Part shown: piece by piece, positions 6,321-63,343 of the stretch
Position numbering within the stretch: the stretch's first letter is position 1
Layout of the letters: the number at the start of each line of letters is the position of its first letter
Assembly (NCBI GenBank): GCA_965214835.1
Contig: CBDCCK010000002.1
Location: forward strand, 64,001-128,000
Reading direction: 5' to 3'
DNA length: 64,000 nucleotides
From: Nitrosopumilaceae archaeon
GTDB lineage: Archaea > Thermoproteota > Nitrososphaeria > Nitrososphaerales > Nitrosopumilaceae
Position numbers and translations under genes: made by a program
The notes under the pieces: generated by a model
Database searches by the model: none
The model's input: only the letters and a program-made list of their open reading frames with translations
Told to the model about the DNA's origin: nothing

Positions 6321-6389
6321 TACAAGTCATACACATGCGATGGTAATAAGGGGTTTGAGACCATGAAAAAGATAGATAACGGCCGGTAT

Positions 6390-44688: not shown

Positions 44689-45080
44689 TTCATGACCGGC
44701 AGAGGCGCCGGTTCAGGCTGTCTGTTCTGGCGCGATGCCTGAATCATGGCACGCGCATCCGGACTGCACCATCCTGCGATGCGTCCGAGGTTTCCTATAC
44801 TGGAGGCGCACATGGCGCGCACCAGATCGACGCGGTCGTCCCGCGCAAGCGCGTTGAGAACGCGCACTGCGACGCGGGGGTCCACCCTGTTCTTATGGGT
44901 GACGCACCCGGCTACTGCCAGGGACGCGTTCCCGGAAAGGGACTTGCGCGCGCCCTGCCAGTTGTGGCCGCAGCAGGAATAGAACTCGGCTGCAAGGCCG
45001 GAGTGGCCGTTAATGACCAGGGCGTTGATGATGCCCGATACGTTCTTTGCGCTTAGCAATGCCAGGTGGTGCTGCAGCAG

Positions 45081-46976
45081 TTATACTGCAGGCATGGCAC
45101 TGTGAACCGGGCCCTGGCGGCCGTCCTGCGGAAGCGTTCTGCGACTGGAACGGCCGGCATGACTGCCGCGCTTGCCGCCGGCACCACTGCCGGAGCCCCT
45201 GGACTTTAGGAGGGTCCTGGCAAGACCGGCCTCCGTGCCTTTGCGGTCCACCGATTCCAGGGCAGATGACAGCTGCCTGAGGGATCCGGTGTCAAGCGAC
45301 CTCATCGAGGCGAGGACGTCGACTGTGGAGGAGTGTGTGTCCGGATAATCCGAATCCTCCGGCAGGGGCAGATCCATTCCGGACTCTGCCACATATGCGC
45401 CGTACTCCTTGACAAGCCTGTCGACTGCGCCGTTTTTGTGGCCACTTGCGGGCCTGCCGGCAGAATCCCTTGCGGGCCTGCCGCCGAGGATGCGGTATGC
45501 AAGCTTTGCCTCGGTTCCGCGACAGCCGGAGTTACGGAGATCGGCTGCCAGCCTCTTCAGGGAGTCCCTCTCAAGGCTTCTCAGTGATGCCATCGTCTCC
45601 TCGATGGAAGACTCGACGTCAGGGTATGCGTACTCGAACTCTGACTCTGTAGAGTCGATTCCGGATTCCGTCACATACTTGCTGCATTCGGCAATCGCTG
45701 CCGCGTTGGCATTCATTGCAGAGCCGTGGCGGCTGCCTGCAGCGGTCTTTTTGGCCCTGCCGCCTGCCGACTGCTTTCGGGCTGCCGGCGCGGTGCCTTG
45801 GCATCTGGCATGCGCGATTATGGCAGACGGATCAAAGGTTCTTTTGCCGCCCAGTCCTGCCTTTGACTTGGCGCGACTGAGAGTGCCCCATCCGGAGCGG
45901 CCGTCAGCAGAAGATGACGGCGACCGGTTACTGCGACTTTTGGATCTTGCCGCCATAGGCTGGTGCACCCTGCGTACGGGGAGCTCCTCCGGAGAGTCGT
46001 CCATGACCTCGGAGTAGAACTGTACCAGTGAGGCCTGCTCGTCGAGCTCAGAGGCGCTTGCCTTGAGATACTCGGCAGTTGCGGCGTCCTTTTCTTCTGC
46101 CAGTATGCCGGAGAACGTCTCGCGAACCTCATCAGACATCTCTGCCACGCATGCAAGGCTGCACACGCTGTCCTGCACGGCAGGATCAGCCGCCGTTGAC
46201 ACGACGGAAGGCTCGCAGGTCTTGACAGACATCCTGTCAAACTTGGATCCGGTACTGCTGATCTTTCTCCAGGATCCACTGCGGTCGCGGATTGCAAACG
46301 CTATCTCCGCTTTCCTGCAGCTGTCAATGTATTGCTGCCACGGTGATGCGGAGCGTTCGCGCCTTGTAAGCAGTGCCTGGCCGGCCGGCACCATTCCGTC
46401 AACGCCTGATGCGTGAGACGGGGTATCGGCATGAGATGACACGTGGGAGTGCACATCGTTGATGCCTGCAAGGACGCCGGTGTCGGTGACTGTGCTCACG
46501 GAGCCGTCATCCATGCGGGCCGCAAGGAGGGACAATCGCCTGTGACAGTCCTCCATGGCGTAGATCTCGCCGGGACACCCGTCGTCTGCAGGGTTCAGTG
46601 CAGATGATACCGTCTCATCGAGCATGCACTCTGCTGTAAGCTCGGTCCACTCGTCGCACATTGACTGTGCAAGCGATTTGGCCCGGGCTATCCTTACGTG
46701 GCGCGGTTCCCGCATCCTGACGGGGTTGCCAGTGTCCACAAGGATTATACTCCCGTTGGACATGACTGCGACAATCTCGCCACGTGACATGAACATATGC
46801 GTTTTACCGCCGCCTGCACCGGACGTCTTGTAGTAGACGGCCCCGCGGACGTTGGCGGATCTTCTCACCTGTCGGCAGACGCTGTTCACGTCGTGTTTTT
46901 TGCCGTCGACACTTATCGCGTCGAGGCGCGTATCTGTTTGTTTTGGTTTTTGTTTTTGTTTTTGTATTTGACTCAT
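45081..46976 (-). CDS. Large hypothetical protein with low-complexity linker and duplicated C-terminal motif
   Basis: Start at MSQIQK; two copies of YV.ESG.D...YPD..S......S.RSL...SL..L...L......GTEA.LA. Confidence 0.7.
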   Translation of the reverse strand: MSQIQKQKQKPKQTDTRLDAISVDGKKHDVNSVCRQVRRSANVRGAVYYKTSGAGGGKTHMFMSRGEIVAVMSNGSIILVDTGNPVRMREPRHVRIARAKSLAQSMCDEWTELTAECMLDETVSSALNPADDGCPGEIYAMEDCHRRLSLLAARMDDGSVSTVTDTGVLAGINDVHSHVSSHADTPSHASGVDGMVPAGQALLTRRERSASPWQQYIDSCRKAEIAFAIRDRSGSWRKISSTGSKFDRMSVKTCEPSVVSTAADPAVQDSVCSLACVAEMSDEVRETFSGILAEEKDAATAEYLKASASELDEQASLVQFYSEVMDDSPEELPVRRVHQPMAARSKSRSNRSPSSSADGRSGWGTLSRAKSKAGLGGKRTFDPSAIIAHARCQGTAPAARKQSAGGRAKKTAAGSRHGSAMNANAAAIAECSKYVTESGIDSTESEFEYAYPDVESSIEETMASLRSLERDSLKRLAADLRNSGCRGTEAKLAYRILGGRPARDSAGRPASGHKNGAVDRLVKEYGAYVAESGMDLPLPEDSDYPDTHSSTVDVLASMRSLDTGSLRQLSSALESVDRKGTEAGLARTLLKSRGSGSGAGGKRGSHAGRSSRRTLPQDGRQGPVHSAMPAV

Positions 46977-47410
46977 TAAAACACCTTTTTTTGGTTGTCT
47001 CTTGGCACTGTCGTCATGACAGTGCAACGGCACGGCATTCTTTCCCGCGCCCGGTGTGATGCTGTAAAAAAACACATGATATGGGCCAGGTGACATCCGG
47101 CCCAAATGACACATGATAGAATCTTCATGCGCCGCTATACTGCGGAAAACTGTTCTCGGACTCCCACACCTGCCTGCCTGTCAGCCTACAATAGTAGGTA
47201 ATGCAGGATTTGGAGGCCGCTGTCAGGTCACGAAAAAATTGGGGTTTGGACCGTCTACATGCGGCCCGTGTTCAGATACGCACAGTTGGGACATGCCGTC
47301 ACATGCCTCCTGCCTTCCACACCTGCCTGCCTGTCAGCCCTTTCGGGTATTGCAGGGTTTGAAAACAGTTGCCAGGTCACTAAAAATGTTGGATGCGTGC
47401 AGCCCCGAGG

Positions 47411-48312: not shown

Positions 48313-48741
48313 CTACGGCACCCGCCTGTCCATGGCCGACTTTATGCCTCCCAGAACAGACAGTATTTCCTTTAGCACGACGCGCGTCATCTCGCCGTCG
48401 TCTTTGAGTGTCTTGCGCGTCATCTCGCCGTCGTCTTTGAGTGTCTTGCGCGTCATCTCGCCGTCCTTTCTGATGGCCTCCGTGAGTGTCTTGCGCGTCA
48501 TCTCGCCGTCCTTTCTGATGGTATCCTTGATTCCGGATGCGACATCGGCCGTAAGGAATGACATTATCAGTCCTACGAAGCCGGCGATAATAAAGGCTAT
48601 GCCCTCGCCGATCATGTCGATTCCGTCATTGATATGGGAGGACACGGCCATGACGACGCCGGTGCCGGTTATCCATCCGAACACGATGTTGGCGCGCCTG
48701 ATGATCCTGTCCTTGATTCTCTTCCTCATGTTCACGTTCAT
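48313..48741 (-). CDS. Two-TM membrane protein with DGEMTRKTL repeats
   Basis: Hydrophobic helices; 33- and 45-bp internal repeats. Confidence 0.78.
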   Translation of the reverse strand: MNVNMRKRIKDRIIRRANIVFGWITGTGVVMAVSSHINDGIDMIGEGIAFIIAGFVGLIMSFLTADVASGIKDTIRKDGEMTRKTLTEAIRKDGEMTRKTLKDDGEMTRKTLKDDGEMTRVVLKEILSVLGGIKSAMDRRVP

Positions 48742-49991: not shown

Positions 49992-50063
49992 CGTTGAGTG
50001 AAAGGAAGAAAAAGAATGGGTGGGGAGGACTTGAGGATCCTCCCGGATCGAGGAGCGAATGAC

Positions 50064-50192
50064 TCACCGGTCTGCCGGTACAGTACGTCCCAGGTTCCTG
50101 AGATAACATTCGTCCTTGAAATCTGCTATGGCTGCCAGCTCATCGGAGGTCTCAAAGTCCTCTGCTGCGCCTGTATCATAGATGTAATCCAT
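50064..50192 (-). CDS. 42-aa acidic micro-protein (also 50791..50919 and 52601..52729; truncated at 51709..51759)
   Basis: MDYIYDTGAAEDFETSDELAAIADFKDECYLRNLGRTVPADR; frame kept in three copies. Confidence 0.6.
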   Translation of the reverse strand: MDYIYDTGAAEDFETSDELAAIADFKDECYLRNLGRTVPADR

Positions 50193-50261
50193 GAGTGTAA
50201 TGTGGAAATTCTTGCAAAGTGTAAATTGTAAAAAGAAAAAAGGGGGTTGTGACTGCGGCCG

Positions 50262-50636
50262 CTAATGGAAGTTACACCACGTCCAGTACGAGCCCCAGTT
50301 CTCATCTTCCTGAACCCAGACTTTGTAACAATGGGGACACTTCACGTCAAACGGCGCCTCACGAGCCAATCGGAGAACCTCCCGGGTGCAATCCCAGAAA
50401 CGGCGCCATTTGGTTCTCAGGCTACAACCATAGCCATACCAGAGGCGCAGTTCGCAAAGGCGTTCTGCATGGCGCAGGGTACAACCGTGCAGACATGCAC
50501 ACGACTCAGGCCTGAAATTACGGTAGAGTTGATAGCAGACGCGCACCCACAGGTGTGAATAGATGCCTCTTTTTTTCACACGAGGGTATTTTGCCAGTGC
50601 TGTCTTTTCGTCGTAATAGATGCTTTTCGAAGTCAT
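50262..50636 (-). CDS. Cys-rich hypothetical protein
   Basis: Starts MTSKSIYY at the hammerhead cut site; CPHC..CNFH end. Confidence 0.62.
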   Translation of the reverse strand: MTSKSIYYDEKTALAKYPRVKKRGIYSHLWVRVCYQLYRNFRPESCACLHGCTLRHAERLCELRLWYGYGCSLRTKWRRFWDCTREVLRLAREAPFDVKCPHCYKVWVQEDENWGSYWTWCNFH

Positions 50637-50707
50637 AGACGCCCAAAAATCTGGCGTTTCGGGCTTGCGTGAGCCCCTTGCGGGACTGGCCCAATCATCA
50701 GTATGAC
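50632..50707 (-). ncRNA. Type I hammerhead ribozyme
   Basis: GUCAUA CUGAUGA UU GGGC..GCCC GAAAC GCC..GGC GUC/UAUGAC. Confidence 0.9.
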
Positions 50708-50978
50708 CGTTGAGTGAAAGTAAGAAGAAGGAAAAAAGAATGGGAGGGGAGGCCATGAGAGGGCCATCCCCGATCAAAGGTTCGAACGGCTCACCGGTAT
50801 ACCGGTACGGTACGCCCCAGGTTCCGGAGGTAGCATTCATCCTTGAAATCTGCTATGGCTGCCAGCTCATCGGACTTCTCAAGGTCCTCTGCTGCGCCTG
50901 TTTCATAGATGTAATCCATGAGCGTAATGTGGAAATTCTTGTAAAGTGTAAATTGTAAAAAGAAAAAAAAAGGGGGGA

Positions 50979-51533
50979 TCAGTCTCTGCCGAAGAGACTG
51001 TTCCATTGTGCCAGGAGGCGACCAAAGACAGGCCACGAATACCCGTCGTCGTGACAAGGATGCGCGCCATACCTTCCAACGAAGAGATCGGCCCATACCT
51101 CGCTGGCAAAACTCTCACGATTCATGAGTCCATCGGCCATCTCCCGATGGCAGTGCCTCGTGAGCGCAGAGAGGTTCATGCCGTGTTTGATGGCGTGCCC
51201 TATCCACTCGGGATCGCCGGAGCGCGGCAGCAGGTTGGCCTCGTGATGCCCAAGCTCGTGGTAGAGTGTGTTCCTGACACACGCGCCGCAGTGCTGAATG
51301 CCGCAGATGGCAATCTCCATTGAGGAAGGGTCATAGTACCCGTAACAGTCAGGTCTCGAATCTTCCACGTAAAGGAGGCAGACGCCGCGCCTCAGGTACG
51401 ACGGTATGCGAAAATACTCCTCACGGATCATCTCGACTTCGTGGACGTACGGGCGCATCTCCGCGCAGACGGACACTGCCGTCTGTGGTTGCTCGCGGGG
51501 TCGGCTATTGAAGTGGTGAACAGATGTGTTCAT
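50979..51533 (-). CDS. Zinc metallopeptidase-like protein (HExxH), copy 1
   Basis: GYYDP...LYHELGHH...SEVWADLF. Confidence 0.75.
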   Translation of the reverse strand: MNTSVHHFNSRPREQPQTAVSVCAEMRPYVHEVEMIREEYFRIPSYLRRGVCLLYVEDSRPDCYGYYDPSSMEIAICGIQHCGACVRNTLYHELGHHEANLLPRSGDPEWIGHAIKHGMNLSALTRHCHREMADGLMNRESFASEVWADLFVGRYGAHPCHDDGYSWPVFGRLLAQWNSLFGRD

Positions 51534-51601
51534 TGTAATGTGTAACATGGAAAAAATGGGGGATGGGATGCGACAAACAGCCGCATCCGGATGAGGGGAC
51601 T

Positions 51602-51691
51602 TTAGTCCCAGATTTCCCGGTCTTCGGGATCCTCTTCGAACTCGCGGATTATGCGAGGGTAAAAGGGTGTCTTTTTCTTTTTGGAATTCAT
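51602..51691 (-). CDS. 29-aa micro-protein (duplicate at 53411..53500)
   Basis: MNSKKKKTPFYPRIIREFEEDPEDREIWD followed by a hairpin and T-tract. Confidence 0.4.
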   Translation of the reverse strand: MNSKKKKTPFYPRIIREFEEDPEDREIWD

Positions 51692-51817
51692 TACTGAAAT
51701 TTCTGGAATCAGGAAATGCCAAAGTCCTCTGCTGCGCCTGTTTCATAGATGTAATCCATGAGCGTAATGTGGAAATTCTTGTAAAGTGTAAATTGTAAAA
51801 AGAAAAAAAAAGGGGGA

Positions 51818-52375
51818 TCAGTCTCTGCCGAAGAGACTGTTCCATTTGGGGAGCAGGCGCCTGTAGGTGTCCCACGAATAGTGGAAACAGCTCCATCTGG
51901 ATCCGTGCCTTCCAACGAAGAACTCTGCAAAGACTTCCCCTGCGAATGTGTGCGTGTCCATCTCGCCGCGCTCCATCTTCTGATGGCAGAACTCAGTGTA
52001 CCACGAAAGGCTCCTGCCAAACTCAAGGGATGCAGCAGTCCAGTCCGGGTGTGCCCAGAGCTTGTGCGTCTTGGAGCAGTGGTGCCCGAGCTCATGGTAG
52101 ATGAGAGACCTTACGCATCTGCGACAGTGCTGCAATCCACAGACGGTGATCGTCTGATCCGTCCAACAATAGAACCCTCCACCTTCCGGTCTGGGCCCTG
52201 CAATGTGCAGACAGCGGATACCGCGCCTGAGATCAGGGCGGACGCGAAAGTACTCCTTGCGGATTATTCTGACAGCATGCTCATGTACGAGCATTTCCTT
52301 GCTGACAGTGAACTTCGGCGTGTAGCGCTCCGGAGAGCGTCGGCATTTGAAGATGTTTGTAAACATGTTCACCAT
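51818..52375 (-). CDS. Zinc metallopeptidase-like protein (HExxH), divergent paralog
   Basis: GFYCW...IYHELGHH...GEVFAEFF. Confidence 0.75.
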   Translation of the reverse strand: MVNMFTNIFKCRRSPERYTPKFTVSKEMLVHEHAVRIIRKEYFRVRPDLRRGIRCLHIAGPRPEGGGFYCWTDQTITVCGLQHCRRCVRSLIYHELGHHCSKTHKLWAHPDWTAASLEFGRSLSWYTEFCHQKMERGEMDTHTFAGEVFAEFFVGRHGSRWSCFHYSWDTYRRLLPKWNSLFGRD

Positions 52376-52787
52376 AATGTAGAAAAATCGGGGTATCGTA
52401 GTGAGAGGTCTTGAAAAAACCTGTCACTCTGCGTTCTAGACTTTGGATTCGCGGAACCTGCGGCGGCCGGGACACTTCACACCAGCGCCGGTGCCACAGG
52501 GATTGTTGGAGGTTGTGATTCTGGAAAATCCTGAAAAACTGAAAGAAAAAGAATGGGTGGGGAGGACTTGAGGATCCTCCCGGATCGAGGAGCGAATGAC
52601 TCACCGGCTGGCTGGTACGGTACGTCCCAGGTTCCTGAGATAACATTCGTCCTTGAAATCTGCTATGGCTGCCAGCTCATCGGAGGTCTCAAAGTCCTCT
52701 GCTGCGCCTGTTTCATAGATGTAATCCATGAGTGTAATGTGGAAATTCTTGTAAAGTGTAAATTGTAAAAAGAAAAAAAGGGGTGGA

Positions 52788-53342
52788 TCAGTCTCCGCCG
52801 AAGAGACTGTTCCATTGTGCCAGGAGGCGACCAAAGACAGGCCACGAATACCCGTCGTCGTGACAAGGATGCGCGCCATACCTTCCAACGAAGAGCTCGG
52901 CCCATACCTCGCTGGCAAAACTCTCACGATTCATGAGTCCATCGGCCATCTCCCGATGGCAGTGCCTCGTGAGCGCAGAGAGGTTCATGCCGTGTTTGAT
53001 GGCGTGCCCTATCCACTCGGGATCGCCGGAGCGCGGCAGCATGTTGGCCTCGTGATGCCCAAGCTCGTGGTAGAGTGTGTTCCTGACACACGCGCCGCAG
53101 TGCTGAATGCCGCAGATGGCAATCTCCATTGAGGAAGGGTCATAGTACCCGTAACAGTCAGGTCTCGAATCTTCCACGTAAAGGAGGCAGACGCCGCGCC
53201 TCAGGTACGACGGTGTGCGAAAATACTCCTCACGGATCATCTCGACTTCGTGGACGTACGGGCGCATCTCCGCGCAGACGGACACTGCCGTCTGTGGTTG
53301 CTCGCGGGGTCGGCTATTGAAGTGGTGAACAGATGTGTTCAT
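52788..53342 (-). CDS. Zinc metallopeptidase-like protein (HExxH), near-identical duplicate of copy 1
   Basis: Part of an ~850-bp near-identical duplication (about 50884-51725 vs 52693-53535). Confidence 0.75.
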   Translation of the reverse strand: MNTSVHHFNSRPREQPQTAVSVCAEMRPYVHEVEMIREEYFRTPSYLRRGVCLLYVEDSRPDCYGYYDPSSMEIAICGIQHCGACVRNTLYHELGHHEANMLPRSGDPEWIGHAIKHGMNLSALTRHCHREMADGLMNRESFASEVWAELFVGRYGAHPCHDDGYSWPVFGRLLAQWNSLFGGD

Positions 53343-53537
53343 TGTAATGTGTAACATGGAAAAAATGGGGGATGGGATGCGACAAACAGCCGCATCCGGA
53401 TGAGGGGACTTTAGTCCCAGATTTCCCGGTCTTCGGGATCCTCTTCGAACTCGCGGATTATGCGAGGGTAAAAGGGTGTCTTTTTCTTTTTGGAATTCAT
53501 TACTGAAATTTCTGGAATCAGGAAATGCCAAAGTCGG

Positions 53538-55195
53538 CGGAGTTATATGGTGGGATAATTGTACAGGAAATGGTGATGAGGGCTCAGACTGCTCCCTGTC
53601 TTCATTGCATCGCAGTGATGCTCAGAATGAATGGTGTCTCATCATCGCCCTCGTTTGTGTAGCAGAATAATGCGGGAATCTAATCGGCAAAGCAGGTTGG
53701 AGTTATATTACAGAATAATGATTCAGGAAATGGTGATGAGGGCTCAGACAACGCCAGATTCATCATGAATCAGACTGGGGGTGTCTCATCATCGCCCTCG
53801 TTTGTGTAGCAGAATAATGCGGGAATTTTCAAAGTCAGAATGGCTGGAGTTATATGGTGGAGTGTGGTACGAAACATGGTGATGAGGGCTCAGATGTCAC
53901 GGCTTTCTTCATAGCCACGACAGGCTCGGAGATTATTGCTGATCTCGGCCCTTTGTTCTTCATCATCGCCCTCGTTTGTGTAGCAGAATAATGCGGGAAT
54001 TTTCAAAGTCAGAATGGCTGGAGTTATATGGTGGAGTGTGGTACGAAACATGGTGATGAGGGCTCAGACAACGCCAGATTCATCATGAATCAGACTGTGT
54101 GTGTCTCATCATCGCCCTCGTTTGTGTAGCAGAATAATGCGGGAATTTTCAAAGTTGGAATGGCTGGAGTTATATGGTGGAGTGTGGTACGAAACATGGT
54201 GATGAGGGCTCAGACAACGCCAGATTCATCATGAATCAGACTGTTGGTGTCTCATCATCGCCCTCGTTTGTACAGCATAATTTGCAGAAGTTTCTGCTTC
54301 AAAGTTGGCTGGAGTTATATGGTGGAGTGTGGTACGAAACATGGTGATGAGGGCTCAGACTGATCTCTGTCGTCATTGCATCGCAGTGATGCTCAGTATG
54401 AATGGTGTCTCATCATCGCCCTCGTTTGTGTAGCGGAATAATGCGGGAATCTAATCGGCAAAGCAGGTTGGAGTTATATTACAGAATAATGATTCAGGAA
54501 ATGGTGATGAGGGCTCAGATAGGTAGCTGTCTTCATTCACGAAGTCAGAATAACAGGCTGTCATCATCGCCCTCGTCTGTGTAGCGGAACAATACGGGAA
54601 TCTCGGCGGCAAATCAGGTTGGAGTTATATGGTGGGATGATAATTCAGGAAATGGTGATGAGGGCTCAGACTGACTCGACCGTCATTGCATCACAATGAT
54701 GCTCCGGATGAATGGAACTCATCATCGCCCTTGTTTGTGTAGCGGAATAATACGAAAATCAAAAGTTAGAATGGCTGAAGTTATATGGTGGAGTGTGGTA
54801 CGAAACATGGTGATGAGGGCTCAGAATGCTAACTGTCTTCATTCGTGAAGTCAGTATAACAGGCTGTCATCATCGCCCTCGTTTGTGTAGCAGAATAATG
54901 CCGGAATGACCGGGTTGGAGTTATATTGCAGAATGATGATTCGGGAAATGGTGATGAGGGCTCAGACCTATAGCTGTCTTCATTCGTGAAGTCAGAATGA
55001 ATGGAACTCATCATCGCCCTCGTTTGTGTAGCAGAATAATGCGGGAATCTAATCGGCAAAGCAGGTTGGAGTTATATTGTGGAATGATAATTCAGGAAAT
55101 GGTGATGAGGGCTCAGATAGGTAGCTGTCTTCATTCGTGAAGTCAGAATGAATGGAACTCATCATCGCCCTCGTTTGTGCAGCGTAATAATGCCG
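53538..55195 (-). ncRNA. Tandem array of 11 box C/D guide RNA units (53578-53652, 53738-53799, 53884-53973, 54058-54119, 54204-54265, 54349-54423, 54509-54574, 54660-54732, 54815-54880, 54956-55021, 55107-55172)
   Basis: Each unit reads GAGGGC-G-AUGAUGA(C)-guide-CUGA(D')-loop/stem-AUGA(U/A/C)GA(C')-guide-CUGA(D)-GCCCUC, with K-turn geometry and roughly 10-13-nt guides; D' is variant (CCGA, CGGA) in units 3 and 8. Confidence 0.93.
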
Positions 55196-55271
55196 GGATG
55201 GATCTGTATCTCAATCAAGTCGGACAGTCAGTTGCAGGGGGGTATAATGCTCAAAAAATGGCTGGTTTTGC

Positions 55272-55508
55272 CGTCCTCGAATTCGGGGACGCTTGGCGGA
55301 TTTTTCGGCGTTTTTGAAGAGTTGTCTTAAAGATAGAGATTTTTCCTAATGTTGCAGTTCTGTTTTGTTTGGGATTATTCCCGGTTTTTTGTGCCTACCT
55401 CTGGATCTTTTGTATTAAGGACGTTTTGCGGGGGTATACTATCCAGTTTTTGGGGGCGTCCCCGATACCGGGGACGGAGGGGCAAAAGCGTCCCCGAATT
55501 CGGGGACG
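55272..55508. promoter_or_regulatory. Three 20-bp palindromes CGTCCCCGAATTCGGGGACG (55272-55291, 55457-55476, 55489-55508); candidate centromere/operator
   Basis: One perfect and two near-perfect copies directly upstream of the actin-like gene. Confidence 0.7.
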
Positions 55509-55547
55509 CCTTTTTGGCCATTAAATGCAAACCGTGCTGCGGTATGC

Positions 55548-56459
55548 ATGGGAAGAAGCACAGAGTCCACGCCGGCCGGCGGGAAGGCGGCATCTCTAGG
55601 AGGCGCCGACATCGCCGTCGGGCTGGACATCGGGACAGGATCAGTCAAGGTCGCGACCAGAAGGCACCGCTTCAAGTTCCCGTCGGTCGTGGCAAGGGGC
55701 CGGGCAATATCCGTCGACGGCTCGGAGCCCGAGTCCGTGTTTGTCGGGGAGCAGGCAATGCGGCAGGAGCACGTCAGGTCCATGCTGCTCAAGACGCCAG
55801 TATACCGGGGGGTGCCGACTGCGATGGACGACTATATCGAGCTGGTGCGGCACGCCCTCGACCTGGTGATCAGGGCCGACAGGAACACGGTCTGGCACGG
55901 GCCGTCAGGATACTCGGAGATGGCAATAGTGGCAGGCATCCCGTACAACTCGCGGGACAGGGTGGAGGCCATAAAGAAGGCAGTGCAGGCCGAGTTTGCC
56001 CCGCACAGGTTCGGCGTGATGTTCCAGGCCAGGGCAACGCTTGAAAACGAGGGGATGAGGGACGGAATAGTGTGCCATATCGGCCACGGGACGACAGAGA
56101 TGATGGCGGTAATCGGCGGGAACACCGCATACGGGGAGACCGTGCCTCACGGCGTGGGAGACGTCGTCATGGCAGTCACGGGATCCAGGACAGGATACAC
56201 CGACCACTCGGTGTTTGCTTCGGGCTCGCAGCTGCTGGCAGAAAACAGGCGCATACTTGCCGGCCACATAGCCGACAGCCTTGAGAAGATAGTCATAGAC
56301 TATCCGGGGCTGGACGTGGTGTTTGCAGGCGGCGGGGCGCTTGTACCGAAGCTGGTAGGCGAGATACGGGTCAGGACGTCGGGGACTGTCAGGACGGCAG
56401 ACGAGCCGGTGTTTTCAAACGCCCTGGGAATGCTGAAGAAGGCGACGGGGCTGTGCTGA
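55548..56459 (+). CDS. Actin-like ATPase (ParM/StbA/MreB superfamily)
   Basis: GLDIGTGSVK (phosphate 1), HIGHGTTE (phosphate 2), FAGGGA (adenosine), F.NALG. Confidence 0.85.
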   Translation: MGRSTESTPAGGKAASLGGADIAVGLDIGTGSVKVATRRHRFKFPSVVARGRAISVDGSEPESVFVGEQAMRQEHVRSMLLKTPVYRGVPTAMDDYIELVRHALDLVIRADRNTVWHGPSGYSEMAIVAGIPYNSRDRVEAIKKAVQAEFAPHRFGVMFQARATLENEGMRDGIVCHIGHGTTEMMAVIGGNTAYGETVPHGVGDVVMAVTGSRTGYTDHSVFASGSQLLAENRRILAGHIADSLEKIVIDYPGLDVVFAGGGALVPKLVGEIRVRTSGTVRTADEPVFSNALGMLKKATGLC

Positions 56460-56707
56460 CGCCGCGAGACCGCCGGTACCTGGAGTCCCCGGGATCGCTG
56501 TCAGGCGAGGCAAGGAGGAAGGCAAGGTACAGGATGAGGGCTAGGATTGCGGCAGTGATGGATGATGCGCGGCTGCTCATGAGCAATGCCGAGACGGTGA
56601 GGCGGGAGTTTGGAATCGACGTGCGCGGGATCCTGCAGGACGGGGCTGAGGAGGCGCAACAGGAAAAGGAAGCCGTGGAGGCCGGAGGGGATCCGGATCT
56701 GCTGTAG
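56453..56707 (+). CDS. Small basic/acidic protein coupled to the actin-like gene
   Basis: Overlaps the upstream stop; LTPRDRRYL...RYRMRARI. Confidence 0.65.
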   Translation: MLTPRDRRYLESPGSLSGEARRKARYRMRARIAAVMDDARLLMSNAETVRREFGIDVRGILQDGAEEAQQEKEAVEAGGDPDLL

Positions 56708-56720
56708 CGGGGATGCCGGA

Positions 56721-57578
56721 ATGCGGGAAATGACTGCCGGATCCGGGGATCGTGGCGCCGGAGGTGCCAAAAAACTTGAGACGGTAAGGGAGAGGGTAGG
56801 CAGGCCGTATTACGGGGATGACAGGGTGCTGCTGTACAACCTTGACTGCCAGGAGCTGATGCGCAGGATAGGATCACCGGTAGTCGACCTGACGGTGACA
56901 TCCCCGCCGTACAACATCGGAAAGGAGTACGAGCGCGTTCGGAGGCCGGAGGACTATCTTGCGTGGTGCGGCGCATGGATGAGGCAGATCTTCGAGATAA
57001 CGGACGGGCGCGGTGCCTTCTGGCTCAACCTTGGGTACTTTGAGCTGCCGGGGAGGGCAAGGGCGGTCCCCATAAGCTACCTACTGTGGGACAGGACACC
57101 GTTTTACCTGATGCAGGAGATCGTGTGGCACTACAGGGCCGGGGTGTCGGCAAAGAGGCGCTTTGCGCCAAGGAACGAGAAATACCTGTGGTATGTCAAG
57201 AACGGGGACTCGTACACGTTCAATCTGGACGCCGTAAGGGATCCGGACGTGGCGTATCCTAAACAGAAAAAGAACGGCAAGCTAAGGTGCAACCCGCTCG
57301 GGAAGAACCCGACAGACGTGTGGGAGATTCCAAAGGTCACATCAGGCAGAAACAGATCGTCCCCGGAGCGGGCTGAACATCCGGCGCAGTCGCCCCTTGC
57401 CGTCCTTGACAGGATAATAAGGGCCTCAAGCAATATCGGCGACCTTGTCTTTGATCCGTTCGTCGGCTCCGGCAGTACGGTTATCTCATGTGTGGCCAGC
57501 GGCAGGAAGGTGATAGGATGCGATACCAACGCGGGATACCTGGACGTGGCCGTGGAGCGGATCCGGGCTGCGGGCTGA
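56721..57578 (+). CDS. DNA methyltransferase, N4-C/N6-A, beta-type motif order
   Basis: TSPPYN precedes HPAQ and DPFVGSGST. Confidence 0.92.
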   Translation: MREMTAGSGDRGAGGAKKLETVRERVGRPYYGDDRVLLYNLDCQELMRRIGSPVVDLTVTSPPYNIGKEYERVRRPEDYLAWCGAWMRQIFEITDGRGAFWLNLGYFELPGRARAVPISYLLWDRTPFYLMQEIVWHYRAGVSAKRRFAPRNEKYLWYVKNGDSYTFNLDAVRDPDVAYPKQKKNGKLRCNPLGKNPTDVWEIPKVTSGRNRSSPERAEHPAQSPLAVLDRIIRASSNIGDLVFDPFVGSGSTVISCVASGRKVIGCDTNAGYLDVAVERIRAAG

Positions 57579-57939
57579 CTGCCGCCCTCGGGGAATAATG
57601 CGGCATCCGGGCCTGAAACTGCAGGACACGGAACGTCAGGCAGCGCCTGTATCCGGGGCGCCAACCGGATCCACTGCAAGCTCAAAACCGGACTCTTCCA
57701 TGGACGCGGCGATCCTCTTTGAGGTATCCACGCAAAGCATGCACGTCTCGTCGGATATGACGCCGAGCCCCCCTGCGCGACCTTTTTCCATAGACCCGTG
57801 ACGATGGCACGTCATACGGCGGGGCCATCATATCGTCCACGTCGCGATCGCATTTCCGGCTACGGCGGTATCCTGCGCGCCGGGCGGTTCCGGTGCCTAC
57901 GAGCCAGGCCATGTTGCAGATACCCTGAACTCCTTTAGT

Positions 57940-58050
57940 GTAACAGGTCGGGCTCTGGAAGTTCAGGCATGAATTTTACCACCAAAGAGGCCTCCGCAGA
58001 TGTAATTCGTGCCTAAAATCACAAGTCACTTCCAAAGTCCGAGCTGTTAC
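57940..58050. mobile_element. 111-bp MITE with GTAAC termini and 8-bp target duplication (IS66-like ends)
   Basis: GTAACAGGTCGGGCTCTGGAAGT...ACTTCCAAAGTCCGAGCTGTTAC flanked by CCTTTAGT on both sides. Confidence 0.85.
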
Positions 58051-59218
58051 CCTTTAGTTCCTTTTTCGAGTTTCGCTTTCTGATTGCCGTTGTCGTGACG
58101 TCGCAAAAACCGTAATGCGACATCATGTCTGCATAAATCCTCTCGGTCGGAACTACGGTCCCGTAGAACGTGGAGTTTCCTATTATATAGTGGGCCCTGG
58201 CACCCGGCCTGAGTACGCGTCGCACGGACTCAAAATGCCTCGACATGTCGTCGCAGTACTTGCCCACGTAGTTTGACAGGACCTTCCCGCTGCGGTCGTT
58301 TCCTGCAATGCTGCGCAGTATCTTCCCGACATATTCAGGGATCCACGACCTTCCACCAGTCCAGCCTGCAAGCCTGCTGGTGGCAATTCCCCACGTCCCG
58401 CCGATGGTACGCCAGTCCATCTCGCCTGCATCGCGCCCGCTTGAAAGGTGGCCAAGCCAGTACATGAACGGACGCAGTTCGCGTATGTATGACATTCTGT
58501 TGGCGTACGGCGGGGACGTAATTATGACGTCAAACATGGATGCGGCGTCCGAAAACTCGCGGGAATCCCCGAGCATGACGCTTACCTTCCCGTATACCGG
58601 CCGTCCAGCGCCGGCGATGACAAAGTCCAGGTTACGCAGAAAGACATCCCTCATCCCGGCACTGGACTGCACGCTGTTCGGCGCGTCCTTGAACGACATG
58701 GACTGGTGGCCGAAATCGGCGCAGGAGAGCTGGATCAGCGTCCTGCAGAATGCGACGTAAAGCAGGTCAGACACGCCGCCCCCGGTCCGCATTATCCCGG
58801 TCTTGAGGCGCCTGATGAACATCTCGGCGTCACATGACCACCACCGGCGCATGTTGTGGATCGGGGGGGACGGCTCTGGCTGTACATGTGGCCCGTCTTC
58901 CAGGATGAGACGTCCAGCCCTTTTGGCGGATCTTATCGTGTCTGCACCGTAATGCCCCGTCTTTGCTCTGGCCAGCCACACCAGGAACGGGTTTACGTCT
59001 ATCGTGGTCGCATCATGACCCCGGTCTGCCGCACATAGTGCAGTAGTACCCACGCCGCAGAACGGATCAAGTATCAGACTGCCTGCAGGACACCGTGATA
59101 TGATCTCGTCGACGATCCTGACAGAATATGCCGGGGTAAGACGCAGCCATCCGTGTCTGCCTGCATCCGTGTTGAATTTGTAGGTATAGTCGCTTCTCTG
59201 CTCTAGCGCAGCCATCAC
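58019..59218 (-). CDS. DNA methyltransferase (FxGxG before SPPY); C-terminus altered by the MITE
   Basis: LDPFCGVGTT, ITSPPYAN; without the MITE the frame ends KELKEFRVSATWPGS* at 57897. Confidence 0.88.
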   Translation of the reverse strand: MMAALEQRSDYTYKFNTDAGRHGWLRLTPAYSVRIVDEIISRCPAGSLILDPFCGVGTTALCAADRGHDATTIDVNPFLVWLARAKTGHYGADTIRSAKRAGRLILEDGPHVQPEPSPPIHNMRRWWSCDAEMFIRRLKTGIMRTGGGVSDLLYVAFCRTLIQLSCADFGHQSMSFKDAPNSVQSSAGMRDVFLRNLDFVIAGAGRPVYGKVSVMLGDSREFSDAASMFDVIITSPPYANRMSYIRELRPFMYWLGHLSSGRDAGEMDWRTIGGTWGIATSRLAGWTGGRSWIPEYVGKILRSIAGNDRSGKVLSNYVGKYCDDMSRHFESVRRVLRPGARAHYIIGNSTFYGTVVPTERIYADMMSHYGFCDVTTTAIRKRNSKKELKGNSSDFGSDL

Positions 59219-59383
59219 TTGTCCCTCCCCAGCAATCCCCTCAATACAGACCGCGTTCCGTCTCTCAGCGCGGATTGATTGCGCCTGAAGAACCCGGCCA
59301 GATCATACCCCGTAATGTGATGTATAAAGTCAAACGTGGATGATGTCGGCTCCTGTATCCCGGCTCCGGCAGTCCCGTCCGGC
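59215..59383 (-). pseudogene. Possible 3' remnant of a gene (cognate endonuclease?) coupled to the methyltransferase
   Basis: STFDFIHHITGYDLAGFFRRN... ends overlapping the MTase start; no 5' part present. Confidence 0.35.
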
Positions 59384-59659
59384 CTACGGCCTATCCCGCC
59401 CATCCCCCAGCCTGTCCCTGAGGATGTCACGAATTTCATCGAGGGTAGATGACATACGGTCCAGCTTGTCCAGCTTGGCATCGATACGGTCCAGCTTGTC
59501 CAGCTTGGCATCGATACGGTCCAGCTTGCCTCCAAGCAGCTCCTCGGTCTTTCTGATTCTCCTTTCGCTCAACCACAAGTTGATTCCAAATAACGGCAAA
59601 GCAAATAAAGCCGAAAAGAACAGCCACGTCCGGATGGCCTCGCCGTAGACGGCATGCAT
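59384..59659 (-). CDS. Membrane protein with LDKLDRID repeats
   Basis: Paralog of 59696..60223; 30-bp repeats. Confidence 0.7.
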   Translation of the reverse strand: MHAVYGEAIRTWLFFSALFALPLFGINLWLSERRIRKTEELLGGKLDRIDAKLDKLDRIDAKLDKLDRMSSTLDEIRDILRDRLGDGRDRP

Positions 59660-59695
59660 GCCCCTCGCCCTGCCTGCCAGAGCACGGATTCACGT

Positions 59696-60223
59696 CTATT
59701 TCAGCTTGCCGCTTATCTCATTCAGCTTGCCGCTTATCTCATTCAGCTTGCCGTTCATCTCCCTGAGGGTGTCGCGCATCTCCTTGAGGGTCTCTGATAT
59801 GTCGTCCAGCTTGTCCAGCTTCTTGTCCATCGTCTCAAGCTTGTCCAGCTTGTCCAGCTTCTTGTCCATCGTCTCAAGCTTGTCCAGCTTCTTGTCTATT
59901 ACGTCCAGCTTGCCTCCAAGCAGCTCCTCGGTCTTTTTAATCCTCCTTTCGCCCAACAACAAGTTGAATATGAAAAGCGGCAAAGTAGATAAAGCCGAAA
60001 CTGGGGCCGCAATCTGCACTGCCCAGTCATATGCGGCCGCTATCTCCGGGAAGAATCTCACGACAATGGCGGTTCCTACCAGTGTGGAGATTGATCCTGC
60101 CAGGAATGCTCGCACTATTCTCAATGCAATATCCAGCCGATCGCGCTTGGCCATGACACATTGCCGGTATGGGAGCCAATTAAGGTGGCGATCACTGCCG
60201 GCCAGATTGCCACCTTGTTTCAC
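59696..60223 (-). CDS. Two-TM membrane protein with long coiled-coil repeats
   Basis: LDKLETMDKK and KLNEISG repeats; likely start at MAKRDR. Confidence 0.75.
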   Translation of the reverse strand: MKQGGNLAGSDRHLNWLPYRQCVMAKRDRLDIALRIVRAFLAGSISTLVGTAIVVRFFPEIAAAYDWAVQIAAPVSALSTLPLFIFNLLLGERRIKKTEELLGGKLDVIDKKLDKLETMDKKLDKLDKLETMDKKLDKLDDISETLKEMRDTLREMNGKLNEISGKLNEISGKLK

Positions 60224-60537
60224 ATGTGCCTGCTGCGGCCTTCAAATCCGCGCGATGCCATCCGGCAGGGCGTGCAAGAGGACGGAAGTTCAAAAGAGCG
60301 CAGGTCGTACCATATACAAACCTCTGTTTAATAGCAAACGGCAGTAAATATGACATGTCGTTGACGGCAATGCATGGGGACATATCCACGCTTGCGATAG
60401 CTGCCGGCGTAGCCGCACTGCTGGCAGGTTACGCGGTTCACATACTTGGGATAGGCCCGCACAGCTGAAGATGTCACACCAATGGAGGTGTCACGATATC
60501 CGGCATTCTGCTAGGGGCAATCCGGTCACCATCAAAG

Positions 60538-63324
60538 TCATGGGCATGATACAGTCGTGTTGTATGCCGATATCATACTGTTTATCTGCTCATGCTGTAC
60601 GGCATCGGCATCATCAAGCATCCGGCACACTTGGTCGGCATTTGCATTTGCAACAGCAAGTGACAGTTCTTGAATCGATGTCATTGCATGCCGAGCCGAG
60701 CCTTGAGACTCGTCAGACGCAGGAGGGGTGGTGCCAAGATAAAAGTTGTCAAAATATGCCTTTTGTCGCCAGTCGGCAATCCATGAATCAGTCAATCCAA
60801 GCCACACAGAAACGTCGTCATGTCCGGACACCGCATCAGTCACATTGGCACTGAATGACTGCCAACCGGTGTTAAACGTGCCGCCCCGGTTAAGCCATGT
60901 GGTGTATATGGAACTTCCATGAGAATCAAATATCTGCAGCATGGCATTAGTCACAGACGAAGAAGCAAAGTTGGAAGTGGCCTTGTAGTCAACTCCGATA
61001 AACAGGGAATCATCTTCATCCAGGTTGCGCAGATCAACAGTCTGTTTCATGCCGGCAGTGGCAACAAAACCGTCACCGCTGATGAGGCCCGAAGGTGCCG
61101 GATTGCCATCGTTCGAATCCAGCCCCAATACATACCGGTTATTGGAAGTGTCATAGTCAGACGAAGCAGTCCTGTGCAGGGTCCAGGAATCAACATCTGA
61201 ATAGTCATCAGTTATGGCCTCAAAAGATGGGGTGGGCTCGGTTGCAACCCTGACAAAGTTAGACTGATCAGACAGTCCAGCGCTGTTGATTGCCTTTACC
61301 CTGTACACGTATATGGCATCTGCAAGTACGTTCACATCAACAAATGTGGTGTCGGTGTTTTGCGTGTTTTCAACATAAACGGAGAGGGCAGCCTGTGCCG
61401 GTACGGCCCGCTTGAGTATCTGATATCCTGAAACATCTCCATCAGGCGCATCCCAGCTGAGTGTCACCGAATTGTGAGATGAGACGGCTTTAAGGTTCTG
61501 GGGTGCATCAGGTATGGTGGTAGCACTGGCAGGCAAAGTCATGACACGAATGAACGCAGAGCGGGGCGAATCGCCAAAATCATTTGACGCAACCACACGA
61601 TAGACGTATTCCGTGTCTGAATTTACGTTTCCATCAACGTAGGAGGGAGCAGAAACAGTGTCAATGACGGCAAGATCAGGGGTTCCAACCAGCTTTCTCA
61701 AGACATCATACGAGGTGGCTGACTCGGATGGAGACCAGCGCAAATTCACGGAATCAAAAGCTACAGATTCTGCACGCAGGTCAAGGGGAGCATCAGGTGC
61801 GGCAGGCTGCACAGAAACGACAACATCAAAGCCCACGCTGGCAGAGTTGTCATGATCGTCAGTTGCAGTACAGGTGACAGTGGTGGTACCGACAGGGAAC
61901 ACAGAGTTTGGTGCCGGAATGCAGGACACGTCGACATCATCATCTGTAAGATCCGTGGCAGCCGGAATGGCATAGTCGACTGCAAGAGAGCCGGACTCGG
62001 TCATAACAGATACATCATCAGGCGTAGAGTCAAATACAGGGGGTGTCGTATCTTGGACCGTGATTATCTGGGAATCAGTTGCAGAATTTCCAGAGGCATC
62101 AGTTGCAGTCCACGTGACCGTGATGGTGCCAAGCGGGAAGGATGCGGGGGCATCATTGGTTATGGTCGGAGATAAATCCTGATTGTCATCTGCGGTGGCA
62201 GTACCAAGGGATACCTGTGTAAGTGTGTCTGAGGCCTCAACTGTAATGTCATCAGGCGCAGTAATGGTTGGCGGAGTACTGTCGATACCGGAAGAATATT
62301 GCAGGGTAATGACGCCGTTGTCTGAGAATTCGCCGTCAGATACGGAATAGGTAATGGAATCAGTATCAGTCAGGCTGACAGGCGTGTAAACCAGCTGTGA
62401 GGACTCGGGGCCCTGATTCGGGATTTCCTGGGCCCTGTTGTTGTGATCCAGGGTACCGTATGTCGGGAAGCTGATCAGGTTGAACTCGATGTGCTGGCGG
62501 TTGGGCTGGGCCACCTCCAAAGGTATGGTTACAGGCTGGTCTTGGACCTGAACCGTCTTGTCAACTGCGACAGGGGCCGTATTCTGGGAAGGCAGGTCGT
62601 CACAATCCAACTCCGTCACGATTCCTGCAACAAACGTATTGTGAGAACCGCATTTTGTCAGCTTGTAGCCCTGGGACGTCGAAATACGGGTATTGTCCAA
62701 TCTGTTATCAGACCATTCCCCGTCTTGCAGTTTTTCTGAATCTGCGAATTTGGCAACCCCGATGGAAGAGTACTGGTCAGACCGCAGTGTTCCTTCCAGA
62801 CCAGATTGGATGTCATTTCCCTTGTCACCAAACATATCAAAACTGGCTATTGGAAGGGAGGAATACTCGTGTAGGTACAGCAGCCAATTGTGGTCTTGCG
62901 TGCCGCGTCTAATCTCAAAATTCAACGTGTCGCCAACATCAAAGTCATGTGAAATGGTATATTCAGAATATTGTGTAGTCATTTCCATCATATAATAATA
63001 ATTAAAACCATAATACACGCGTTCATCTGAAATACAGACATCTCCGGTTCCATCACCGTCTGAATCTTGCAAGCCGCCTTGTGTAACTCCCAATTCAATC
63101 CATTCGTTTTTAGGTAAGATAATCCATTGCGTAGCCACTGCAACATTAGTCAGACAGTCATCTGATTTGATAAACATGTCAGGCACATGGAGTTGATATT
63201 TTATTCCCTGATAAGAAGCAGGAACATCTGATTGGCTTACTTGGGCATAACAATGAGGAGACACACAAAGAGACGCATCTGCATATTGCAATCCTACAAG
63301 AGTGGAGGAAACCACAAACATCAA
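60538..63324 (-). CDS. Large secreted/surface protein with HYR-like and fibronectin type III domains
   Basis: Signal-like N-terminus; DSTPPTITAPDDITVEA...FPLGTITVTWTATD (HYR x2); PDAP.DL...V.L.W...YVYRV.A.N (FN3 x2). Confidence 0.88.
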   Translation of the reverse strand: MMFVVSSTLVGLQYADASLCVSPHCYAQVSQSDVPASYQGIKYQLHVPDMFIKSDDCLTNVAVATQWIILPKNEWIELGVTQGGLQDSDGDGTGDVCISDERVYYGFNYYYMMEMTTQYSEYTISHDFDVGDTLNFEIRRGTQDHNWLLYLHEYSSLPIASFDMFGDKGNDIQSGLEGTLRSDQYSSIGVAKFADSEKLQDGEWSDNRLDNTRISTSQGYKLTKCGSHNTFVAGIVTELDCDDLPSQNTAPVAVDKTVQVQDQPVTIPLEVAQPNRQHIEFNLISFPTYGTLDHNNRAQEIPNQGPESSQLVYTPVSLTDTDSITYSVSDGEFSDNGVITLQYSSGIDSTPPTITAPDDITVEASDTLTQVSLGTATADDNQDLSPTITNDAPASFPLGTITVTWTATDASGNSATDSQIITVQDTTPPVFDSTPDDVSVMTESGSLAVDYAIPAATDLTDDDVDVSCIPAPNSVFPVGTTTVTCTATDDHDNSASVGFDVVVSVQPAAPDAPLDLRAESVAFDSVNLRWSPSESATSYDVLRKLVGTPDLAVIDTVSAPSYVDGNVNSDTEYVYRVVASNDFGDSPRSAFIRVMTLPASATTIPDAPQNLKAVSSHNSVTLSWDAPDGDVSGYQILKRAVPAQAALSVYVENTQNTDTTFVDVNVLADAIYVYRVKAINSAGLSDQSNFVRVATEPTPSFEAITDDYSDVDSWTLHRTASSDYDTSNNRYVLGLDSNDGNPAPSGLISGDGFVATAGMKQTVDLRNLDEDDSLFIGVDYKATSNFASSSVTNAMLQIFDSHGSSIYTTWLNRGGTFNTGWQSFSANVTDAVSGHDDVSVWLGLTDSWIADWRQKAYFDNFYLGTTPPASDESQGSARHAMTSIQELSLAVANANADQVCRMLDDADAVQHEQINSMISAYNTTVSCP

Positions 63325-63343
63325 TGAAAAAATGAAAAAGAGA

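Follow-up and report, generated by a model that had tools for sequence, protein, structure and literature searches.

A tandem array of eleven putative box C/D guide RNA genes in an accessory island of a Nitrosopumilaceae archaeon

Introduction

Why would an archaeon keep eleven apparent guide RNA genes of one design head to tail beside a block of orphan genes? The question is raised by a 64,000-nt stretch of DNA (the window; contig C2, positions 64001-128000) of a Nitrosopumilaceae archaeon, in which a reading made from the sequence alone had placed, between window positions 53538 and 55195, a tandem array of box C/D small RNAs (sRNAs). RNAs of this architecture bind L7Ae, Nop5 and fibrillarin in archaea and direct 2′-O-methylation. 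Their genes were said to be normally dispersed, which a review bears out with the addition of clusters of two or three (PMC7994747); the paper on the TIGR-Tas systems also cites only such small clusters (PMC12045711), and Pyrobaculum has a dispersed family of C/D sRNAs resembling miniature inverted-repeat transposable elements (MITEs) (PMC6009581). The sequence-only reading went further and proposed a constant scaffold with variable guides that would act as a CRISPR-like, programmable cassette at the end of a mobile-type gene block, with no described system of this form. We have followed up these proposals computationally. Positions without a contig name are those of the window.

Results

Eleven units of one scaffold

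The array occupies 53578-55172 on the minus strand, inside the borders first drawn for it, and consists of 11 head-to-tail units (U1-U11, Table 1) with cores of 62-90 nt and a start-to-start spacing of 141-174 bp. Tandem Repeats Finder describes the span 53960-55198 as 8.3 copies of period 151 with 76% matches (score 911). Box C (AUGAUGA after a G) and box D (CUGA) lie inside a GAGGGC/GCCCUC terminal stem in all 11 units; this stem has 6 bp in ten of them and 5 bp in U8, where the outermost pair is lost (AAGGGC). Minimum free energy folding closed the 6-bp stem in each of the four cores folded. Box D′ reads CUGA in 9/11 units, the exceptions being U8 (CGGA) and U3, in which no D′ is identifiable, and C′ is AUGAUGA, AUGAAGA or AUGACGA in ten units and AUGACGG in U8.

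The units fall into three types according to the stretch between D′ and C′, which is a 3-nt loop in type A (U2, U4, U5; 62 nt), a GCAUC/GAUGC hairpin in type B (U1, U6, U8; 73-75 nt) and an 8-nt loop in type C (U7, U9, U10, U11; 66 nt), while U3 (90 nt) stands apart with two internal hairpins. The internal GCAUC/GAUGC stem of the sequence-only reading is present in the three type B units; its quotation of unit 2 was exact. In the ten units of types A-C the guide slots measure 12-13 nt from C to D′ and 11-12 nt from C′ to D. It is the scaffold that is kept and the guides that differ, as had been proposed.

Every linker begins with AUCACCAU, and the TATA-like AUAUAACU is present in 10/10, about 56 nt ahead of the next unit, where it may serve as a promoter. 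Most linkers end in a near-constant stretch of ~27 nt, which is more divergent before U5, U7 and U8. Both linkers folded are predicted to be unstructured (-2.3 and -6.6 kcal/mol, not below shuffles). In the alignment, cores and linkers are mosaically combined and one guide is found with different partner guides, from which we infer that duplication and recombination have shaped the array.

Table 1. Features of the array and its immediate surroundings (window positions)
Feature	Position	Strand	Evidence and remarks
Whole array, 11 candidate box C/D sRNA genes, 75-85-nt G-poor linkers between	53578..55172	-	unit extraction, alignment, Tandem Repeats Finder
U11, type C, 66 nt	55107..55172	-	D′ guide predicted to pair with 23S helix-71 region (LSU 2073-2083); D guide orphan; model R1 75.3 bits
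U10, type C, 66 nt	54956..55021	-	D′ guide as in U11; D guide orphan, differs from U11; R1 73.9 bits
U9, type C, 66 nt	54815..54880	-	D′ guide 10 bp with peptidyl-transferase loop, LSU 2551-2560; N+5 = LSU A2554
U8, type B, 73 nt, most degenerate unit	54660..54732	-	GCAUC/GAUGC stem kept; D′ guide 11 bp with LSU 2073-2083
U7, type C, 66 nt	54509..54574	-	D′ guide with peptidyl-transferase loop, 10 Watson-Crick + 1 G-U; D guide = U11 D guide
U6, type B, 75 nt	54349..54423	-	chimeric D′ guide: 5′ half type-A-like, 3′ half helix-71-guide-like; 8 bp to LSU
U5, type A, 62 nt	54204..54265	-	D guide 10 bp with 16S 906-915 (helix-31 loop region); D′ guide orphan
U4, type A, 62 nt	54058..54119	-	D guide = U5 D guide; D′ guide differs from U5 at 2-3 central positions
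U3, two internal hairpins, 90 nt	53884..53973	-	homologue of chromosomal singleton C2:1121377-1121469; D guide 10 bp with tRNA-Asp anticodon loop
U2, type A, 62 nt	53738..53799	-	Rfam RF00095 45.7 bits
U1, type B, 75 nt, last of array	53578..53652	-	GCAUC/GAUGC stem
Inter-unit linkers, two sequence variants	53653..55106	-	alignment; folds not below shuffles
31-aa ORF directly after array	53405..53500	-	same TATA-like motif ahead; second exact copy in 136-bp repeat 51591-51726
Three paralogous ~185-190-aa HExxH proteins	50979..53357 (52788-53357, 51818-52375, third inside 50979-51896)	-	no Pfam family
Actin-like (ParM/ALP-type) protein, divergent from array	55548..56459	+	Pfam ALP_N 29.8 bits (cut-off 26.3); NCBIfam MamK-like, weak
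DNA methyltransferase gene, first	56721-57578	+	Pfam, PADLOC, NCBIfam scans
DNA methyltransferase gene, second	58019-59215	-	Pfam, PADLOC, NCBIfam scans
LSU, large-subunit rRNA; N+5, target residue opposite the fifth guide nucleotide counted upstream from box D or D′; ORF, open reading frame.

The units as archaeal box C/D sRNAs

Run unit by unit, the Rfam covariance models place U2 (45.7 bits) above the gathering score of 45 of RF00095, the Pyrococcus C/D sRNA, and the other ten units below the cut-offs. U4 and U5 reach 40.7 and 39.8 bits with the same model, and the remaining units match C/D families only, nearly all on the minus strand. A strict dual-box pattern (box C, 10-14 nt, CUGA, loop, C′ box, 10-14 nt, CUGA), searched on both strands of the 3.22-Mb genome, has nine matches, and since all nine fall inside the array, it stands far beyond chance. 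In a relative with a cluster of the same scaffold (genome G004), two outer stem pairs are altered on both sides in five units (GC to AU, AU to UA); 96% of 126 cells pair there, against 11-69% in slid controls, and the covariation counts as one inherited event.

The genome encodes the proteins with which such RNAs would work. Fibrillarin (C2:360409-361068) and Nop5 (C2:361373-362029), which lie side by side, and L7Ae (C2:1297221-1297493) each score above the Pfam cut-off, and all three lie outside the window. A six-frame Pfam search of the genome for Nop domains returned the host Nop5 only, in agreement with the proposal that no Nop or fibrillarin gene adjoins the array. It is plausible, from the full set of boxes and stems, that the units are archaeal C/D sRNAs of the L7Ae/Nop5/fibrillarin kind, as first suggested, and if expressed they would form the largest regular array of methylation guides that we found described for archaea.

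Guide complementarities

The guides were scored against the 16S and 23S rRNAs of the same genome and its 57 tRNAs called by ARAGORN, with a helix through N+5 required and 60 shuffles per guide. Helices of 10-11 bp with 23S or 16S rRNA were obtained for 8/22 guide slots (D′ of U7-U11; D of U2, U4 and U5), and six of the 17 distinct guides have a score that is reached by at most 10% of their shuffles.

One guide, predicted to pair with helix 71, occupies the D′ slot of U8, U10 and U11 and forms 11 bp with LSU 2073-2083 (2-3% of shuffles reach this), with A2076 as N+5. U1 and U6 carry a chimeric version keeping 8 bp, which brings the units with this guide or a derivative to five, and the same guide is found in the D slot of one G004 unit. 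A second guide, in the D′ slot of U7 and U9, pairs over 10-11 bp with the peptidyl-transferase centre (PTC) at LSU 2550-2560, a score of 10-10.5 that 5-7% of shuffles reach. Its N+5 residue is LSU A2554, the second A of the conserved UAAC, which we take to be the equivalent of E. coli A2451. The D guide of U2, U4 and U5 has a weak 10-bp match with small-subunit (SSU) rRNA 906-915 in the helix-31 region, N+5 being C909, and a guide of relative G019 matches, weakly too, an overlapping site four nucleotides away. The 10-bp pairing of the U3 D guide with the tRNA-Asp anticodon loop is reached by 5% of shuffles. When guides of the relatives were scored against the RNAs of the array's genome, 7/16 attained the level reached by at most 10% of shuffles, one of them on the helix-69 region. 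Helices 68-71 and the PTC are published hotspots of archaeal guides (PMC7994747, PMC4644070).

Two further observations concern single guides. U3 and its chromosomal homologue share both guides, and the U3 D guide is predicted to pair also with an internal stretch closely resembling its anticodon-loop target in tRNA-Asp; this stretch might act as a target mimic within the unit. U1 and U6 each have a D guide with an uninterrupted 10-nt complementarity to an insertion sequence of 1636 bp (IS; C2:675078-676713), both on one strand. The IS has terminal inverted repeats, ~10 copies at ~99% identity and further diverged copies. The two sites are 272 nt apart, and the matched strand is antisense to a 516-aa transposase-like ORF. 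By a hand estimate, the chance that two of 17 guides match one strand of some repeat family is of the order of 0.1 once the many families are allowed for, and the complementarity may be fortuitous.

Distribution and origin of the scaffold

A covariance model (R1) was built from 21 units, namely ten of the array, five of the seven of G004, four of G019, one of G002 and a singleton of the array's own genome (G000); U3 was omitted for its length. In its own genome R1 finds the array, the singleton (C2:1620630-1620701, 52.6 bits), the U3 homologue and two weak candidates. At E<=1e-3, R1 finds one or more matches in 44 of 121 genomes of the family, a tally that includes G108 and G109, which are unpublished; most of these genomes have a single match of ~30 bits. 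Clusters of several units are confined to five of the 121 genomes (G000, G002, G004, G019 and G059), that is 2/27 genera. The G002 cluster lies at a contig end, and that of G004 comprises 6-7 units with a 140-bp period. Two genomes of the array's own genus (G001 and G003, 98% and 96% complete) have no R1 match. Among 141 order-level genomes from 20 families, more than one match was found in G000 and G004 only, and no multi-unit cluster lies outside the family. The lineage is mesophilic, and relatives show 0-3 R1 matches.

The singleton has the same stem and boxes as the array units. Its stem and D′ guide are seen again in L107, a contig from a marine metagenome, and in L160, from a genome of a different family; on this ground the scaffold looks derived from an old, conserved single-copy sRNA of the host. 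The match that is common throughout the family belongs to another sRNA, whose stem differs. The G004 array itself contains a homologue of the conserved singleton.

Wider searches returned little more. An exact 18-nt pattern has nine loci in public genome contigs, of which eight are chance matches in bacteria and one is the G002 contig. A degenerate unit pattern gave four single matches in IMG/VR, none of them matched by R1 at E<=0.01, and at least 120 stretches in metagenomes; among the 80 of these that were listed (L037-L116), R1 has 19 single-unit matches and no further array of the same scaffold. One listed contig (L087, 10700-12400) carries tandem C/D-like units of 83-85 nt, ~140-290 bp apart and upstream of a protein-coding gene. 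R1 does not match them and by eye their gene context is unlike the present one; they are probably an unrelated snoRNA cluster, possibly a eukaryotic one.

DNA contigs from four sequencing runs show the array, in fragments, in other samples. A related strain in run X5 differs from the array at eight core positions and keeps the boxes. We considered whether the guides are hypervariable, since three of the four differences in 213 bp shared with G002 fall at D-guide positions, but in X5 only 4/8 core differences lie in guides and the flanks differ equally, and the idea was dropped.

Relatives with hammerhead ribozymes

In G019 (L021, C31 130-2320, minus strand) a type-I hammerhead lies ~40 nt downstream of each of the four units. 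Two of these ribozymes score 35.4 and 33.8 bits with Rfam RF00163 (gathering 34) and the other two were identified by eye; the predicted cleavage site precedes the start codon (AUG) of a small ORF by 1-2 nt. The same succession of sRNA, hammerhead and ORF was seen by eye in G059 (L157, ~9640-9830, minus strand), while the genome of the array has no hammerhead match at E<=1. One genus might thus excise its guides from mRNA leaders by ribozymes, and the other would have stacked them into a pure array. Such sRNA-hammerhead-ORF modules would be a new way of deriving both a guide RNA and an mRNA almost free of leader from a single transcript. No description of C/D sRNA arrays or of hammerhead-linked sRNAs in Nitrosopumilaceae turned up in the open-access papers searched.

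The accessory island

Between ~4 kb and 53.5 kb the window is taken up by orphan genes that form a single-copy block and include paralogues of one another; its GC content is 55-62%, and that of the genome 52.6%. One IS, which has >47 copies elsewhere, interrupts the block. Recognisable genes of the island and its flanks encode a DDE transposase, a DUF932 protein of phage/plasmid type, a staphylococcal-nuclease-like protein and, upstream of the array, the actin-like protein and the two DNA methyltransferases. Downstream of the array an exact 136-bp repeat (53400-53535 = 51591-51726) marks a duplication.

Several of these neighbours recur beside the same scaffold in other genomes. A homologue of the 31-aa ORF precedes the first guide unit in G019, where the nuclease-like gene and the small ORF stand among the units; the first methyltransferase gene also adjoins the array in G002; and in G004 homologues of the ORFs at 45081-47114, 44667-45059, 29017-29640 and 48313-48741 lie within 8 kb of the array. 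Each of the multi-unit clusters of this scaffold lies beside homologous orphan genes. Nucleotide synteny with the genomes of the same genus is too weak for setting the borders of the island.

Pfam scans of 47 window ORFs, and of ORFs at the relatives' loci, contain no integrase, and the longest repeat shared by the tRNA end (1000-4200) and 50000-64000 measures 13 nt, none reaching 14 nt. PHROGs returned matches of unknown function only, and PADLOC, run on ten nearby ORFs, the methyltransferases only. By tblastn a 677-aa protein has no match in phages and the actin-like protein none in plasmids; neither the 677-aa protein nor a 189-aa protein has a match in IMG/VR, and among 5.8 billion proteins the former finds itself and one metagenome protein of 88% identity. 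The array lies in an accessory island, which may be a mobile element. What remains of the mobile-type gene block is this island with its segregation-type protein and methyltransferases; no integrase, attachment (att) site or virus hallmark was found with it.

Some features of the region are recorded for completeness. Three paralogous orphan proteins of 715-759 aa, encoded on the minus strand (8174-10339, 37100-39247 and 40902-43181) and confined to the island, share the same unknown PHROG and a weak HSP90/GHKL-ATPase-like region at the N-terminus (NCBIfam 35.4 bits for the first). An element of ~110 bp at 57940-58050, which looks like a MITE-like dispersed repeat, has copies of 73-92% identity at ~40 places on G002 contigs. 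ARAGORN makes over-long tRNA-Thr calls at 23939-24034 (96 nt) and 1293-1382 (90 nt); only 2617-2687 attains the gathering threshold of the Rfam tRNA model, and the 96-nt call in the island may be spurious or intron-bearing. The G004 array (L020, C1) is flanked by PIN-domain (5770-6381) and Fic/DOC (13109-14269) proteins and by DDE transposases.

Discussion

The explanation that we favour, and hold to be probable though far from certain, is a tandem array of 11 functional-looking C/D sRNA genes that sits in an accessory island, would be served by the methylation machinery of the host and would have arisen by duplication and module shuffling. The units would be transcribed on the minus strand from the TATA-like motif of each linker or as a read-through precursor, and each would fold into a terminal-stem kink-turn (C/D) and an internal C′/D′ motif. 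Host L7Ae, Nop5 and fibrillarin would then bind the units, and the unstructured G-poor linkers would be trimmed off. The resulting ribonucleoproteins (sRNPs) would 2′-O-methylate the N+5 residues, for which LSU A2076 (five units), LSU A2554 (two units) and, weakly, SSU C909 (three units) are the predicted targets, while tandem duplication and recombination would enlarge the array and reshuffle its guide, loop and linker modules. Most likely the array was carried into the island, or amplified within it, and works via the host machinery on host rRNA; the island itself was probably acquired horizontally.

A number of points weigh against this explanation. U2 alone attains an Rfam gathering score (1/11 units), and U8 is decayed in three motifs (stem pair, D′ CGGA, C′ AUGACGG). 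For 11 of the 17 distinct guides no target outdoes those of the shuffles; orphan guides are common among archaeal C/D sRNAs. The helix-31 pairing, which 17% of shuffles reach, is not significant by itself. That the units are transcribed, processed, bound by L7Ae and used for methylation is predicted from the sequence. In the window scans neither an integrase nor a capsid, terminase or conjugation gene came up, nor did an att repeat, so that what speaks for a horizontal origin is composition and patchy distribution. A particular difficulty concerns U7 and U9. The 2′-OH of A2451 has been described as the critical group for peptide-bond formation, which makes the predicted methylation of its equivalent odd, as it would be expected to damage peptidyl transfer (PMC13215694, a review). 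The PTC guide may for this reason act otherwise, be inactive or fall outside the N+5 rule, and it would be surprising either as a tolerated modification or as binding without methylation. No report of 2′-O-methylation at A2451 turned up in the open-access papers searched.

The alternative that survives best, although we consider it rather unlikely, is that the array is the cargo of a plasmid- or virus-like element which takes over the host's fibrillarin and, to its own benefit, reprogrammes or shields RNAs of the host. Such a device could modulate or shut down ribosomes by methylating the A2451 equivalent, the N+5 residue of U7 and U9, or block site-specific RNases and ribosome-binding compounds that depend on a free 2′-OH. 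The actin-like segregation protein, the two DNA methyltransferases, the DUF932 protein, the IS and the orphan genes of the island would suit an element of this kind, as would the homologous orphan genes beside the same scaffold in G004, G002 and G019, the operon-like strings of small ORFs with hammerhead ribozymes that contain the units of G019 and G059, and the PIN and Fic toxin-type genes adjoining the G004 array. However, integrase, att, replication and capsid genes were not recognised in the scans and the phage, plasmid and IMG/VR collections gave no match. Stable carriage in a genome that is 99.95% complete speaks against a strongly toxic constitutive activity, and the benefit to the element would be pure conjecture.

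The boldest reading, an accessory element with a horizontally transferable, expandable guide array that commandeers the host fibrillarin sRNP to rewrite host RNA, including the ribose of the catalytic A2451 equivalent, we regard as unlikely. If it were true, translation might be tuned or disabled, or rRNA and tRNA sites immunised against toxins of the 2′-OH-dependent RNase type or against ribosome-binding compounds. The array would then be a natural counterpart of TIGR and CRISPR arrays, one that targets RNA and can do without an effector gene, and a living intermediate between dispersed C/D sRNAs and TIGR arrays.

Could the array instead be a housekeeping cluster, made of the lineage's own rRNA guides amplified in place amid neighbours that are odd by coincidence? 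Its targets are conserved host rRNA sites, its scaffold appears to come from a conserved host sRNA whose homologue lies inside the G004 array, and archaeal clusters of two or three sRNA genes are known (PMC7994747). Yet arrays were not found in 2/4 genomes of the same genus or in 25/27 genera searched, the flanks differ in G002, the GC content is deviant and the orphan neighbours travel with the array across genomes, all of which makes a housekeeping origin quite improbable.

That the units guide an unrecognised Nop-domain (Tas) effector against DNA, rather than fibrillarin against RNA, is very improbable. In TIGR stem-loop arrays each tandem unit does have a palindromic stem and two spacers of 8-12 nt that are bordered by box C/D-like motifs (PMC12045711). 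The Nop search of the genome yielded only the host Nop5, however, and Pfam found no Nop domain in the 47 window ORFs, although it was by structure that the TIGR study identified divergent Tas proteins (PMC12045711). The immediate neighbours are the actin-like and HExxH proteins, the boxes are complete L7Ae-type kink-turn boxes with 12-nt slots as in host sRNAs and not those of 36-nt tigRNAs, and the best targets are rRNA. An inert satellite, made of unused copies of a C/D sRNA pseudogene multiplied into a 150-bp tandem repeat, would account for linkers conserved as much as cores, for the many orphan guides and for the decay of U8, but is scarcely credible when boxes C and D are intact in 11/11 units and the terminal stem in 10/11 while guide and loop modules differ strongly, when rRNA-matching guides are kept in several copies and across genomes, and when the X5 strain retains the boxes.

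If expressed, the array shows how guide repertoires grow, by tandem duplication followed by swapping of guides, loops and linkers. It also suggests that rRNA modification may be an accessory, possibly transferable trait of ammonia-oxidising archaea that varies at the strain level.

Comparison with known systems

With CRISPR arrays the likeness is superficial and limited to the alternation of constant and variable parts. Here every unit amounts to a whole gene for a structured RNA, with two guides, in a composite repeat of 141-174 bp, the guides are duplicated between units and match host rRNA, and there is no leader-polarised novelty. PADLOC found no cas model in the ten neighbouring ORFs. The idea of a CRISPR-like, programmable cassette is not supported, on similar grounds: the guides are duplicated and shuffled, the best targets are those of the host, strain differences are not concentrated in guides (4/8), and no acquisition signature, foreign target or Tas/Nop protein was found.

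Eukaryotic polycistronic or tandem clusters of C/D snoRNAs (PMC7994747) occur in plants, in trypanosomes and, as SNORD115/116, in mammals. They resemble the present array in their many tandem guide genes, in the coexistence of identical and diverged guides and in a probable processing from longer transcripts. Unlike them, the array belongs to an archaeal genome, has no introns or host genes, is far smaller in scale and lies in an accessory island.

The archaeal C/D sRNAs (RF00095 and the sR families) share with the units the terminal stem and C/D kink-turn, the C′/D′ motif, two guides of ~12 nt, complementarity to rRNA hotspots (helix 71 and the PTC) and a host machinery that is present. What differs is the arrangement: 11 genes follow one another head to tail in a regular array, joined by conserved linkers.

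To the stem-loop arrays of TIGR-Tas (Faure et al. 2025, PMC12045711) there is a resemblance of form only, and it qualifies the early statement that no such system was described: for archaeal genes the review does report dispersal or groups of two or three (PMC7994747), but TIGR-Tas arrays are similar and come with a Nop protein of their own. Both have regular units in which a stem goes with two short guides bordered by motifs of box C/D type, and both lie in mobile-type gene neighbourhoods; TIGR-Tas arrays are carried on phages, archaeal viruses and parasitic bacteria (PMC12045711). The present array differs in that no Tas (Nop-domain) gene was found and the best targets are rRNA, not DNA. Its units are full-size C/D sRNAs with L7Ae-type kink-turn motifs, 141-174 bp apart, and its 62-90-nt units and 75-85-nt linkers contrast with the dual-repeat TIGR type of 36-nt tigRNAs, alternating 8-12-nt repeats and 9-nt spacers (PMC12045711). 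As apparently bona fide C/D sRNAs in a TIGR-like layout, the units would bear on the proposed evolutionary link between C/D RNPs and TIGR-Tas.

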